A DNA stretch of 64,000 nt, taken from contig OZ246001.1 in the NCBI GenBank assembly GCA_965230295.1, forward strand, positions 3,552,001 to 3,616,000, in the 5' to 3' direction. The position numbers and the translations under genes are program-made. Shown here piece after piece: positions 50,252 through 55,065 of this stretch (its first letter is position 1; each line of letters starts with the position of its first letter). Origin of the DNA: Marinicella sp. GTDB taxonomy: Bacteria; Pseudomonadota; Gammaproteobacteria; Xanthomonadales; Marinicellaceae. Below the pieces are notes generated by a model. That model made no database searches, was not told the origin of the DNA, and worked only from the letters and a program-made list of their open reading frames with translations.

Positions 50252-50267
50252 TGGCACCGAATTAGCA
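50252..50267 (+). promoter_or_regulatory. Candidate sigma54 -24/-12 promoter
   Basis: TGGCACCGAATTAGCA: GG (50253-54), N10, GC (50265-66). E. coli rtcBA is sigma54-dependent. Confidence 0.5.
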
Positions 50268-50285
50268 TCTAAAGGAGGCTTAAAC

Positions 50286-50318
50286 ATGCAAAACAAATAT
50301 ACGAGAAAAATGAGTTAA
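50286..50318 (+). CDS. Putative leader peptide MQNKYTRKMS
   Basis: AGGAGG at 50273-50278, ATG 50286, TAA 50316-50318, directly abutting attenuator helices. Confidence 0.72.
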   Translation: MQNKYTRKMS

Positions 50319-50320
50319 GC

Positions 50321-50413
50321 GCCTACCAACATATTTTGTTTGGAAGGCCAAGATTAACAGTGCCTTTCAGACTTTCAAAAAGCCTGAAATGCATTGCATG
50401 TCGGGCTTTTTTT
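50321..50413 (+). terminator. Transcription attenuator (alternative antiterminator/terminator) upstream of rtcB
   Basis: Terminator aaaaagcctga..tcgggc-T7 (50377-50413). Its 5' arm also pairs with 50365-50375, and 50362-50372 pairs with 50338-50348, which also pairs with 50321-50331. Confidence 0.78.
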
Positions 50414-50566
50414 ATGCCAGAAAAAAGGCAAGCCTGATTTTTATAAGGAAACAGGCAGCAAGTATTTGCTGCTCAATCAGAGGAGTCTTGTGAGGTCGGT
50501 TTTCATCCGAAGAGCTTGCCCTGATACAGATCGGGGATGAAAGAAGGGAAACAAGACACAAAAACT

Positions 50567-51766
50567 ATGCCAATATTAAAACAAATAAACAAGGGTAAAG
50601 TACCCATAAAAATATATACAGAGGACATTGCACCCCAAGCCATCAATCAACTGGTGAATATTGCCAATTTGCCCATTGTTCACCACCATGTGGCAGTCAT
50701 GCCGGATGTGCATGTTGGGATTGGAGCCACCGTAGGTTCGGTGATTCCCACACTCAATGCTGTTATTCCAGCAGCGGTTGGCGTTGACATCGGTTGTGGT
50801 ATGAATGCGGTGAGAACCAGCTTAACAGCCAATGACTTACCAGATCATTTATTTGGTGTCAGGCGTGAAATTGAACGACTTGTTCCTGTAGGTTTCAACA
50901 AACACAAGAAGTCGGTGGTCAACCGGTCCAGTATCAATGGATTAGACAAGCCATTGGATGAAATCTTACATAAACACCCAGGCATCATGAAAATGTTGAA
51001 AAACTTCAACCCGACCTGGCAAAACCAGTTGGGTACATTGGGAGGAGGTAACCACTTCATTGAATTGTGTCTGGATGAAAATGATGATGTGTGGATTATG
51101 CTTCACTCCGGTTCTCGTGGCATCGGCAATGTGATTGGTCGATACTTCATCAACCTGGCCAAGAAAGACATGCAAAGACACCAACATCATTTACCTGATG
51201 TTAACTTGTCTTACTTGTCGGAAGGCAGTGATCATTTCGATGATTATGTGATGGCTGTTAATTGGGCCCAGGAGTATGCCTGGATGAATCGCCAGGAGAT
51301 GATGAAATTGGTGGTGAAGGCATTGCAAAACAGTGCATTGCCAGCATTCACTTTAACCAAGAAAGCCATCAACTGCCACCATAACTACATATCTCACGAG
51401 ACCCATTATGGAGAGGCGGTTTATGTAACCCGTAAAGGTGCCATCAGAGCAGGTGAAGGTGAGCTTGGCATCATTCCAGGGTCAATGGGAGCTAAATCCT
51501 ATATTGTTGAAGGTAGGGGTTCAAAAACATCATTCTGTTCATGTGCACATGGAGCAGGGCGAACCATGAGCCGCACCGAAGCCAAACGAACTTTCAATAC
51601 CCAGGATTTGAAACATCAAACCATGGGTGTTGAATGTCGCAAAGACAAGAACATGCTGGATGAAATTCCGGGTGCCTATAAGGACATCGATCAAGTGATG
51701 GAGAATCAACATGATTTGGTGTCTGTGGTTCATACTTTGAAACAAGTGGTTTGTGTCAAAGGATGA
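50567..51766 (+). CDS. rtcB: RNA ligase RtcB (3'-phosphate/5'-OH ligase)
   Basis: MPDVH, VGVDIGCGM, GTLGGGNHFIE, LHSGSRG, CHHNY, RKGA, IPGSMG, AHGAGR, DEIPGAYKDI. Start at MPILK (ORF track 50537). Confidence 0.97.
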   Translation: MPILKQINKGKVPIKIYTEDIAPQAINQLVNIANLPIVHHHVAVMPDVHVGIGATVGSVIPTLNAVIPAAVGVDIGCGMNAVRTSLTANDLPDHLFGVRREIERLVPVGFNKHKKSVVNRSSINGLDKPLDEILHKHPGIMKMLKNFNPTWQNQLGTLGGGNHFIELCLDENDDVWIMLHSGSRGIGNVIGRYFINLAKKDMQRHQHHLPDVNLSYLSEGSDHFDDYVMAVNWAQEYAWMNRQEMMKLVVKALQNSALPAFTLTKKAINCHHNYISHETHYGEAVYVTRKGAIRAGEGELGIIPGSMGAKSYIVEGRGSKTSFCSCAHGAGRTMSRTEAKRTFNTQDLKHQTMGVECRKDKNMLDEIPGAYKDIDQVMENQHDLVSVVHTLKQVVCVKG

Positions 51767-51886
51767 AAAAGTAACAACCGCTGTTGGACAGTCAGCAGCG
51801 GTTTAACTTAGGAAACGATATGCAAGATAACAACGACAGAAAAACTAAAAACTTTATGAATACGAAAACACATATGAGAGAACATC

Positions 51887-52849
51887 ATGAACAAACAACT
51901 GTTAGACGAGGTGTTGTATTGCTTATCTGATGATCGACACACATACCATTATTTCAAAGATAAATATTGTATGTTCCTGTTAGATCATTACATCAAGGAA
52001 GAAACACCCGTTAAAAATATTAAAAACAGCCACTTAGCCAGGTTTTGCCAAAAACCAGTGGTCAAAACATGGTTAGCCGGCATGGGTAAGAAAACCGTCA
52101 ATCCAGAAATGATAGCTGCCATGTGGCCAACTGATCTATATCACTTCACTGTGACATTAGGTCAGTGGGGTGGTGATGACCCCTATTGGCAACAAACGGC
52201 CAGACCCGGGTTTAACCTGGTGGTTCAATTGAACTTCAGTCGTACACACGATCGAATGTATCAGGCAGTGATTGAAAAAGATTCTACATATCAACCTTTT
52301 GTTTGTGAATCTCATCCAATCCATGGGCATCGAAACACCATTGCTTGGGCGCGTTTAGACATCAGTGAAGATTTTTCAGAGGTGCTGATTGAAGAAGTAC
52401 AAAATGATTGGCTCAGATATGCTTGGGGGCTTTATCAGTCCATTAAGAAAGATCCCAATGCAGAACGCCTGGCACGGCATGGCTTTCGAACCAATTGGGA
52501 TCGACTTCAAGCTTACTTTGAAGATGAGATCAAACCCATGATGCAGGTATGGGATGAAGCCATCTTGTGTGCCACATTGGAATATGTAGTCACTCAGATT
52601 GGCGCGGAAAAGATCTATATGTATGACCATTTGACCGGTGTAGAGATGAAATCGATGGGTCATTGGCATCCACCCAGATCTTTATACACCCAACTGCCTA
52701 AAAAGTTCGGTTTTGAAATCACGACGGAATCACCCCGATTTTACCAGGATGATTTTCGTCTTGAACGGCGAATGAAAAAGATTCGCCAAAGGATGACGCC
52801 TAAATGGCATTTTTTAAATTTAAACAAAGGAGGTATCTATGCCCAATAA
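51887..52849 (+). CDS. Uncharacterised 320-aa protein in the rtcB operon
   Basis: Long co-oriented ORF; motifs QTARPGFNLVVQLNF, TIAWARLD, LIEEVQNDW, PPRSLYTQLPKKFGF. No family recognised. Confidence 0.88.
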   Translation: MNKQLLDEVLYCLSDDRHTYHYFKDKYCMFLLDHYIKEETPVKNIKNSHLARFCQKPVVKTWLAGMGKKTVNPEMIAAMWPTDLYHFTVTLGQWGGDDPYWQQTARPGFNLVVQLNFSRTHDRMYQAVIEKDSTYQPFVCESHPIHGHRNTIAWARLDISEDFSEVLIEEVQNDWLRYAWGLYQSIKKDPNAERLARHGFRTNWDRLQAYFEDEIKPMMQVWDEAILCATLEYVVTQIGAEKIYMYDHLTGVEMKSMGHWHPPRSLYTQLPKKFGFEITTESPRFYQDDFRLERRMKKIRQRMTPKWHFLNLNKGGIYAQ

Positions 52850-53006
52850 CAACCGCAGAAACTGGGTTGCCAGAGCAGCCATTATGCGCAAAGGCGGGGT
52901 TCATGAAAAAACCCATAAGACCAAAAGAAAACAGGCCAAGCAGGCCTTAAAGAAAAAAATCAGAGCCGAGCACTTCGGCTCTTTTTTGTTGGGTATTCGC
53001 CAATAG
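52839..53006 (+). CDS. 55-aa highly basic protein, candidate alternative ribosome-rescue factor (not in ORF track)
   Basis: AGGAGG at 52828-52833; ATG overlaps the upstream gene end. MPNNNRRNWVARAAIMRKGGVHEKTHKTKRKQAKQALKKKIRAEHFGSFLLGIRQ; 16 K/R vs 2 E. Confidence 0.75.
   Translation: MPNNNRRNWVARAAIMRKGGVHEKTHKTKRKQAKQALKKKIRAEHFGSFLLGIRQ
52962..52987 (+). terminator. Intrinsic terminator inside the 55-aa ORF
   Basis: agagccga-gcact-tcggctct then T run to 52987; the ORF stop is at 53004-53006. Confidence 0.8.
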
Positions 53007-53286
53007 CCACCAGTCAACAGAGACTGGTGGCTCAGGATCGATCACAATATTTATGCAGTAGGGCAAACTTCGAACTCGTTATTAGATGACATTGAGCATT
53101 TTAAACCCACCTAAAAAACTCAACAGTGCTGGACAAGCCAATAGAAACCTCGACTCAGGGAATATTCAGTGCCAAAACTTTGAACCTTTTCAAAAAAATC
53201 AAAGGGATTGAGTTGAATCAATGTTTTTATGGGTGGTTTCACCGAGACTTTTGGTATGATTCGGAGCTGAAGTTTGGGGTGAGTTA

Positions 53287-55065
53287 ATGAGTAAATCAAT
53301 TCAATTAATTACATGGTTTTTTATCATGCAGTTGAGTGTGTGTAACATAGCAATTGCTGAACAACCGTGTACAGAGGTCATCAAGAAAGGCGATTATCCT
53401 GCTGCTCTGAAAGTGTGTAGTGATGAATCACACAGGAAATCTAACCAAGATATTGAGGTCTTGCTCTCATTGGTGGAAATCAACCATGAACTGGGTGATG
53501 ATGAACAAGAAGCCTACTATTTAGCCAAAATCAAGACCCCCCCTACATTTCTTGAAAACATCGAATACCAATATCAATGGAATCGCAGGGTGGGGCAAAA
53601 ATACTACTTTTTAGGCGATTATCAACAGGCCAAGAAATATTTGCACAAAGGCCTAGACATTGCCACCACCGAGGCTCAGCAAAATTGGCAAAGCAAGAGT
53701 TACAACGATGTGGGTTTGGTTGCTTATAAATTAAAAGATCACACCAGTGCTTTGAGTTTCTTTAAACAAAGCCTCAACCTAAAAAGAACACATGGCAATG
53801 CCTACGAAGTGGGCAAAACACTCAACAACATCGCATTGGTGCACATGGAACTGGAAGAACATGAGCAAGCGGTTGATTTTTATGAGCAGGCACTGGATCA
53901 ATACCTCGCCTATGTCAAAGAAGATCAATTCGATGAACGGGTGTTTCAACAAATTGCCCATATCTATGAAGACCTGACCCAGGCATACACAGCTTCAAAG
54001 AATGTGGTCAGAGCCAAAGATTACGCGGCTAAAATGGTGGCCACATTTAAATTAAAAAACTCACCAAAAGCACAGGCCAGGGCATTGTTAAACTTAACCA
54101 GGCACCACTTGGGTTTACAGCAATACCCAACCGCCAAAGTGTTTTTAGAGGAAGCCAAGCGGTTAAAAGCAGACAATGATTTTGCATTCGAAACCAGTTA
54201 CTTCCTGGATGCCGCAACCATTGCATTCCATCACAGCAAACACTCTGAAGCCGTGCAGTTGGCAGAGCAGGGTTTGAACGCTGCCATAATCGAGAAGGAC
54301 CATCGATTGATCAGTCAGTTCTATGCCCGTTTAAGTGATTTCTCAAAGGCGGAAAACCCCTCATTGGCATTGCGTTACATGGAACAACAGCAACAAAGTC
54401 GTGAGGCATTTTTACAAGAAAAATATGACAAAGACCTCAGTACCATTAAACATGAAGTTGAAAAGCAACAAATCAAACATGACCTCATCAATGAACAATT
54501 ATTGAATGCACAAAAGTCTGCAGAATTGCAGCGACTGACCAATGGTGTGTTGCTGGTTTCAATGGTTTTGCTGTTGATCACGGGTGTATTTATCACCTAT
54601 GTGGTCAATAAAAAAAGAGAGCAAAAGGAATTGCTCAAATCGATCAAACACCACAAACAGCAATTATTCATGATGCAAAATCAACACATGGTTTTGAATG
54701 AGCCTGATCAACTGAATCAAAATCAAGGGGTGAAGCAGTCACTGAAAGTCAATTTGGTCAGTACCATGATAGATGCATTATCGATTTGGGAAAAAACCAC
54801 CGGCAAAGACCGCATTGAATTGGCTGAATCCAGTAAGGTATGGACCATTTCAATTGATAATGGCACCCTGAGAACACGGTCATTAGACAAGTATTTGGAT
54901 GTTGAAAAGATACCAAAGAATCCCAGATGGCGGAATGTGGTTAAAACTTGTCACTTCATTCTGTCCAGAGAGGAATTGTCAGCAGAGGACCGTTCCCACA
55001 TGGAACAAAAGTTGGCCGAGTTACTCGATCAAGTCAAGCAGTTGTCATTAGGCAAGGTAGCCTGA
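53287..55065 (+). CDS. TPR-repeat membrane sensor with C-terminal cytoplasmic domain
   Basis: Signal peptide, TPRs (SYNDVGLV..ALSFFKQSL; TLNNIALV..AVDFYEQAL), coiled coil, TM (GVLLVSMVLLLITGVFITYVV), C-terminal WEKTTGK..LAESSKVW..RTRSLDKYL..PKNPRWRNV. Confidence 0.85.
   Translation: MSKSIQLITWFFIMQLSVCNIAIAEQPCTEVIKKGDYPAALKVCSDESHRKSNQDIEVLLSLVEINHELGDDEQEAYYLAKIKTPPTFLENIEYQYQWNRRVGQKYYFLGDYQQAKKYLHKGLDIATTEAQQNWQSKSYNDVGLVAYKLKDHTSALSFFKQSLNLKRTHGNAYEVGKTLNNIALVHMELEEHEQAVDFYEQALDQYLAYVKEDQFDERVFQQIAHIYEDLTQAYTASKNVVRAKDYAAKMVATFKLKNSPKAQARALLNLTRHHLGLQQYPTAKVFLEEAKRLKADNDFAFETSYFLDAATIAFHHSKHSEAVQLAEQGLNAAIIEKDHRLISQFYARLSDFSKAENPSLALRYMEQQQQSREAFLQEKYDKDLSTIKHEVEKQQIKHDLINEQLLNAQKSAELQRLTNGVLLVSMVLLLITGVFITYVVNKKREQKELLKSIKHHKQQLFMMQNQHMVLNEPDQLNQNQGVKQSLKVNLVSTMIDALSIWEKTTGKDRIELAESSKVWTISIDNGTLRTRSLDKYLDVEKIPKNPRWRNVVKTCHFILSREELSAEDRSHMEQKLAELLDQVKQLSLGKVA

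Follow-up and report, generated by a model that had tools for sequence, protein, structure and literature searches.

A conserved 55-codon gene with a terminator inside its reading frame, last in an attenuated rtcB operon, is a candidate ribosome rescue gene

Behind rtcB in a Marinicella genome lies a small basic reading frame that carries a terminator-like hairpin ahead of its own stop codon. Is this frame a gene, would its mRNA end without a stop codon, and is its product a ribosome rescue factor, as an earlier note on this DNA proposed? The window is the whole stretch of DNA analysed, 64,000 nucleotides of contig OZ246001.1 (positions 3,552,001 to 3,616,000). Papers are cited by PMC number for the parts of them that were available. 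The features of the locus are:

50286..50318, forward strand: leader ORF of 10 codons, behind a Shine-Dalgarno sequence (50271-50278); its length is kept (9-10 codons in most cases) and its sequence is free
50341..50413, forward strand: attenuator-like pair of conserved layout, a leader hairpin at about 50341-50371 followed by an intrinsic terminator at 50382-50413
50537..51766, forward strand: rtcB RNA ligase gene (PF01139, by family profile), sole copy in the genome, likely start 50567
51887..52849, forward strand: ORF for an unnamed 320-aa protein, weakly GNAT-like in fold
52827..52834, forward strand: Shine-Dalgarno sequence AAGGAGGT, within the 3' end of the upstream gene
52839..53006, forward strand: small basic protein gene of 55 codons (ORF and homologue conservation)
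52962..52987, forward strand: predicted intrinsic terminator inside the ORF, codons 42-50, with an 8-bp stem, a 5-nt loop and 6 T (hairpin call, conservation, covariation)
53005..53032, forward strand: second hairpin just past the stop, 11 bp, no T-run, single copy

The 55-codon gene and its family

On comparative evidence the 55-codon gene is real, coding and conserved. It overlaps the end of the upstream ORF (52849) by 11 nt and starts behind the Shine-Dalgarno sequence at 52827-52834, as the earlier note had described. Translation of 52839-53006 likewise gives the protein it reported, with 16 K/R and 2 D/E, an RKGGVHEK stretch and a hydrophobic tail (FGSFLLGIRQ). Codon differences in 21 comparisons fall mostly at third positions (326, against 194 at first and 90 at second). 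The family core reads RN-x-A-x3-[IL]-[ML]-[RK]-KGG-[VA]-H-[ED]-K ... R-x3-K-x2-L, and all of 119 diverse family sequences share N8, G20, H22 and R30. Twenty close homologues (52-84 aa) align across the residues encoded by the hairpin and then diverge abruptly; one of them reads the hairpin in a different frame, with no stop there either.

Homologues that stop before the hairpin, which the earlier note had named as evidence against its reading, were looked for among the 26 aligned close homologues and none was found; a frameshift or lost-stop artefact was rejected on the same count. A second DNA contig is identical over 51049-53400. As this contig possibly comes from the source sample itself, it does not speak independently against an error of assembly, which is countered instead by the conservation of the locus in homologues.

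The predicted structure is coil, a short helix at residues 14-17, coil, and a helix from residue 26 (pLDDT 78). Residues 18-25 are coil with no strand in this free-chain model; strands of the ArfA/BrfA type form on the ribosome. A fold search with the model returned no match. A complex prediction with RF2 domains scored 0.04 against a mark of 0.32; its controls were not folded, and it counts neither for nor against binding.

A profile search found 615 family clusters at 50% identity. The family occurs in 26 of 61 related genomes and, in an even draw of 400 genomes across the class, in 40, whereas ArfA is found in 6 of the 400; these 400 include four unpublished genomes, none with the 55-aa family and all four among the 191 with ArfB. 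The close homologues with organism names come from Marinicella, and named records among 71 family loci are from Cellvibrio, Thiodiazotropha, Thiothrix, Marinomonas and Chitinimonas. The family gene is identical at two loci (L080 and L082) from MAGs with differing organism titles, one labelled Klebsiella, probably through an error of binning or labelling.

The 119 members searched are not covered by any family of Pfam, NCBIfam or PHROG. They match 47 Pfam families, and among the 25 listed none is matched by more than two members. The best leads are weak: DUF7230 (PF23876) is matched by two of the 119 (best E 0.0095; Atlas row at 0.85) and was not found in this genome; unnamed PHROGs are matched by up to nine members. 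Phage, plasmid and viral collections contain no relative. Literature searches, mostly without subscription papers, returned no description of the family or of the rtcB leader attenuator; PMC6514570 treats the neighbours of PrfH-RtcB, and nothing in its available part matches the 55-aa family. The 55-aa family is a real and conserved small-protein family, apparently undescribed. The earlier note's view of an unannotated ORF from an independent family agrees with the lack of a profile match to ArfA or to solved BrfA.

Signals within and in front of the operon

The stem inside the ORF pairs 52962-52969 with 52975-52982, including five G-C pairs, and is followed by a T-run at 52982-52987. It begins 123 nt into the ORF, and its T-run ends 16 nt before the TAG at 53004. 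The 8-bp stem, T-run and codon positions are those of the earlier note, which had put the gap at about 17 nt and overlooked the hairpin at 53005-53032. None of 12 relatives inspected has an element like that second hairpin. An mRNA ending at 52983-52988 would keep 48-50 codons and no stop.

A 10-kb stretch holds 12 hairpins of this type where shuffles give 9.2; a lone hairpin is within chance, and the case for a terminator rests on its conservation. Of 128 family loci fetched, 124 were parsed and 104 were left after duplicates were removed, a set rich in close kin. A terminator before the stop is called in 53 of the 104 loci; among 500 genes of this genome taken as controls, 18 have one. After the stop the balance is reversed (4/104 against 78/500), and 47 family loci have no call. 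Earlier versions of the caller gave other counts: a loose one gave 58/80, a stricter one gave 48/104 against 9/500 and missed visible cases, and 53/104 is the final figure. In an evenly drawn class sample the in-ORF terminator is present at 8 of 27 loci and at 1 of 51 span-matched neighbours (3 of 30 loci unparsed); a second independent draw gave 7/14 and 3/34 (1 of 15 unparsed). Known arfA genes of the same class also carry in-ORF terminator signals, and the same caller flags 22 of 33.

The pairing of the stem is conserved. In the alignment, which holds 26 of 30 close homologues after four with offset or longer hairpins were left out, 97.6% of stem cells pair, and slid controls reach at most 59.6%. 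Compensatory changes occur in four of the eight stem pairs and take up 27 cells; shuffles average 7.9, and none of 500 gets as far. The tails beyond the T-run are 2-60 codons long (mean 17), and such free lengths would be expected if the stop position were unselected.

Other features may take the place of the terminator. Among the 51 loci without one in the ORF, 19 have a hairpin of at least 14 bp that starts in the ORF (control 2/87) and 10 more end in AA, LA or SA (control 3/87). The long hairpins were counted with a stem counter that allows G-U pairs, as a version without them undercounted. Neither a terminator, a long hairpin nor an Ala-type end is present at 22 of the 104 loci. The check proposed in the earlier note, whether homologues keep an in-ORF terminator, comes out positive in part: the family count and the covariation agree with it, and the ungated loci and the 8/27 of the class sample do not.

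In twelve loci the 3' end is a near-perfect hairpin of 21-27 bp, broken by a small bulge; it resembles an RNase III substrate and replaces the terminator. A C-terminal Ala ends 34 of the 104 family proteins (controls 95/1675) and AA ends 14 (controls 10/1675), 12 of them in loci without an in-ORF terminator. Ala-type C-terminal ends are ClpXP degrons, similar to SsrA tags, and the SsrA tag of this genome ends in ALAA. Two ArfA proteins (L130:1381-1641 and L133:1360-1632) end in LAA, which is SsrA-tag-like and suggests a built-in degron for the read-through product.

Coupling between ribosome and polymerase bears on whether the hairpin would fire. In this genome the median distance from the stop to a strong terminator behind it is 26 nt, and 11 of 141 are within 12 nt. 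Their positions peak genome-wide at 18-30 nt behind stops (85/141), a sharp coupled-type spacing. Coupled ribosomes suppress intrinsic terminators, a short stop-to-stem distance marks uncoupled species, and termination works efficiently over an ORF's first 100 nt and less so further in (PMC7858274). Coupled ribosomes may thus mask the hairpin at 52962-52987; with its start at 123 nt and the coupled-type spacing, partial, stress-dependent firing is the likeliest state.

The front of the operon appears to be controlled as well. rtcB is preceded by a conserved, attenuator-like leader-peptide arrangement (short ORF, alternative helices, terminator), and the direction of switching is weakly supported. 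Among the 44 loci with sufficient sequence in front of rtcB, 32 have a leader ORF of 7-14 codons with a T-run 90-150 nt later (the call at L091 is spurious), compared with 1 of 500 controls. Common to the rtcB leaders are an anti-Shine-Dalgarno sequence after the leader stop, a middle hairpin and the terminator. For the leader in the window, masking the leader start flips the fold to an antiterminator; across 31 leaders the switch is weak (0.74 against 0.62-0.68). Pairing of the leader Shine-Dalgarno with the 3' arm of the terminator was rejected as a general switch, as it is seen in the fold of the window's leader and in none of the other 31. A sigma-54-like site at 50252 was also rejected (4 of 44 loci; the genome has no RtcR). 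Rfam gave no match for the leader (nothing above E 0.5).

The link to RNA repair claimed by the earlier note is borne out by the neighbourhood. In flanks of 1.5-4 kb, rtcB is present at 65 of the 104 family loci and the 320-aa gene at 37; the remaining upstream genes are mixed. RtcB scores 153.6 bits against TIGR03073 (cut-off 271.8) and is under the cut-offs of the PrfH-linked RtcB models. The model of the 320-aa protein is confident (pLDDT 94.5) and resembles GNAT acetyltransferases with middling scores (best Z 9.2, rmsd 3.2, 126 aligned); Foldseek gave no match at E 0.001. Its family has invariant HP, W-R-D and EE-Q motifs and is present in Bacteroidota records too.

Several other arrangements were observed. 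In six Marinicella-type loci (L031-L033, L007, L009 and L039) the small gene is directly behind a large peptidase-like gene, with rtcB gone and the terminator kept. At one locus (L212, G301:C105), left out of the counts, arfB is followed by a remnant of the rtcB 3' end and then by a family gene with a hairpin. Genes for SPFH/Band-7 (slipin-like) proteins, a known partner type of RtcB systems, are upstream of the module in five loci, including L076 and L086. An open frame of about 170 codons without a Pfam match lies near rtcB in eight loci and may be an alternative frame of rtcB. Downstream in this genome (53287-55065), and in several relatives, is a gene for a 592-aa TPR protein that has a membrane segment and ends in an unnamed domain.

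A candidate rescue function and its alternatives

The genome (97.9% complete, one contig) encodes tmRNA, SmpB, RF1 and RF2. ArfA, ArfB and PrfH were not found in it (for PrfH, nothing over the cut-off). In 201 genomes of the order to which genome G360 belongs, ArfA is present in 68 and the 55-aa family in 15, and no genome has both. The P value for this non-overlap is 0.0015 by genome and 0.026 by family, and all such P values overstate the case because kin are not independent. Within one genus, one of four genomes has the 55-aa family and two of four have ArfA. At the class level the two do not overlap either, at frequencies too sparse to count. ArfB occurs at background rate (19 of the 40 genomes with the 55-aa family, 191 of all 400).

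We consider it somewhat probable that the 55-aa product is a back-up rescue factor of an independent family, gated by trans-translation. The leader ORF and terminator would hold rtcB and the genes behind it silent unless ribosomes stall in the first part of the leader; the layout is conserved and the switching is presumed. Transcription of the last gene would then end at the hairpin of codons 42-50, where the signal is conserved, and would leave an mRNA without a stop, most readily when the leading ribosome lags RNA polymerase. By analogy with the established biology of arfA and brfA, tmRNA-SmpB would tag and destroy the product. Read-through products would have an unconserved hydrophobic or Ala-ending tail and would probably be unstable, and the protein would accumulate only if trans-translation is short. 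Truncation, tagging, ribosome binding and release factor recruitment are all predicted steps for this protein. Counting for a rescue factor are the end of conservation at the hairpin, the in-ORF terminator and its covariation, the lack of a shared genome with ArfA and the link to rtcB. Against it count the lack of profile likeness to ArfA or SmpB, the absence of an RF2-type strand (weak evidence), the 22 ungated loci, the coupled spacing and the background rate of ArfB.

It is possible, though we think it unlikely, that the gate is real and the product is no release factor adaptor. Under translation stress the protein may instead bind the 320-aa partner, RtcB, tRNA or ribosomes, and might for instance protect damaged subunits, silence them or expose them for ligation. 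The strong link to rtcB and to the 320-aa gene would fit such a role, as would the long predicted helix in place of the loop and strand of ArfA, the missing ArfA motif and profile, and the free co-occurrence with ArfB. However, the family shares no genome with ArfA, the gene persists with its terminator intact where rtcB is gone (L031-L033), and the trans-translation-gated genes described in the available parts of the literature, arfA and brfA, are rescue factors.

A second alternative is that the hairpin is an ordinary operon terminator lying over a dispensable tail. Coupled ribosomes would mask it, a stop would be reached by most mRNAs, the full-length protein would be the working form, and the nonstop mRNA would be a tolerated by-product. 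We hold this to be improbable. The terminator spacing of this genome is of the coupled type, a second hairpin follows the stop, 22 of the 104 loci are ungated, and at several loci a plain stop comes soon after the helix. Yet no aligned close homologue stops before the stem although tail lengths vary freely, ordinary genes here place the terminator after the stop, and lineages that lack the terminator are enriched in long hairpins and AA ends.

Very improbable is a growth brake, a basic peptide inhibiting translation on failure of trans-translation, or a nonstop-mRNA decoy that draws tmRNA or RNase R to the operon mRNA and so limits rtcB: the three layers that would keep the protein scarce (terminator, long hairpin and Ala-ending tails) would also suit a harmful product, but the four invariant residues speak for a fixed binding site on the protein, and the phage, plasmid and viral collections, where many toxins do occur, hold no match.

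Together, the signals point to ArfA/BrfA-style gating inside an attenuated RNA-repair operon, and the 55-aa product is a good candidate for a new rescue factor. More small, non-homologous rescue factors are expected, and sequence is said to be unable to find them, so that genetic screens are needed (PMC8012679); here the 55-aa family is predicted as a rescue factor from its regulation alone. If the prediction is true, the family could explain how trans-translation is backed up in many Gammaproteobacteria without ArfA (40/400 against 6/400), and would link nonstop rescue with RNA repair by RtcB, with neither PrfH nor RtcR involved.

A far broader proposal, which we regard as doubtful, is that of a widespread fourth release factor-dependent rescue family that replaces both ArfA and PrfH. 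A leader that works independently of its sequence would sense stalled ribosomes and turn on RtcB, a divergent GNAT-fold protein and the factor. The in-ORF terminator would fire only on uncoupling of ribosomes from RNA polymerase and free the factor only once tmRNA is saturated; ribosomes jammed by ribotoxin-cut RNA would thereby be emptied and the RNA religated.

Comparison with known systems

The tail of SmpB and ArfA itself were considered as homologues and rejected, as profile scores are at shuffle level. By eye, the KG-x2-H-[ED]-K stretch and basic helix of the 55-aa protein resemble SmpB's C-terminal tail (KG-x3-[HY]-DKR and a basic helix); unlike SmpB, the 55-aa protein has no globular domain.

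The RtcB2-PrfH pair (PMC9304027) also places an RtcB ligase and a ribosome rescue function in one operon. Here RtcB is under the RtcB2-type cut-offs, prfH is missing from the genome, and GGQ does not occur in the small protein.

ArfT of Francisella is similar in size (about 40-50 residues) and in a K-K/R-G-G stretch. In the available part of PMC6299226 ArfT is reported in Francisella only and its KKGG is near the C-terminus, whereas the KGG of the 55-aa family (K 95%, G 99% and G 100% conserved) is mid-chain, before a long predicted helix; the two are set side by side by description only. The earlier note had drawn this parallel within the nonstop logic, and that part does not stand. According to the same source, neither a terminator nor an RNase III site precedes the stop of arfT; it is not nonstop-regulated, so the KKGG likeness is no part of that logic.

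ArfA (YhdL, PF03889; E. coli and relatives) is closer in design. It shares size, charge, a poorly conserved hydrophobic tail, a terminator or long hairpin before the stop and LAA-type ends in some members, and its distribution does not overlap with that of the 55-aa family. The 55-aa family differs in having a mid-chain KGG-x-H followed by a predicted helix, and in the lack of any HMM or profile match. PF03889 is absent among the 25 listed Pfam families of the 119 members. hhalign against ArfA gave 0.45%, a value reached by 19 of 60 shuffles, and 98.6% for the positive control. The KGKGS channel-binding motif and the KH motif are features of ArfA (PMC6299226, PMC8012679); in the 119 members KG[KG]GS occurs in none and KH after GG in seven.

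BrfA (YqkK) of Bacillus subtilis is an RF2-dependent rescue factor (PMC6881298, PMC8012679) whose structure was solved as 6SZS (PMC8012679). A search of the 119-member profile against all PDB chains returned uL4 alone (E 0.42) and no match to BrfA. BrfA and the 55-aa protein are both small and basic, and in both genes a rho-independent terminator falls within the coding sequence, some 6-9 codons ahead of the stop, so that SsrA tagging would be expected by analogy. The 55-aa gene differs in being gammaproteobacterial, with coupled-type terminator spacing, last in an attenuated rtcB operon and of candidate function. The ArfA/BrfA type of gene design, a terminator or long hairpin before the stop and a variable tail, is present in the 55-aa family, which by these sequence features resembles BrfA and ArfA in gene design and is a member of neither.
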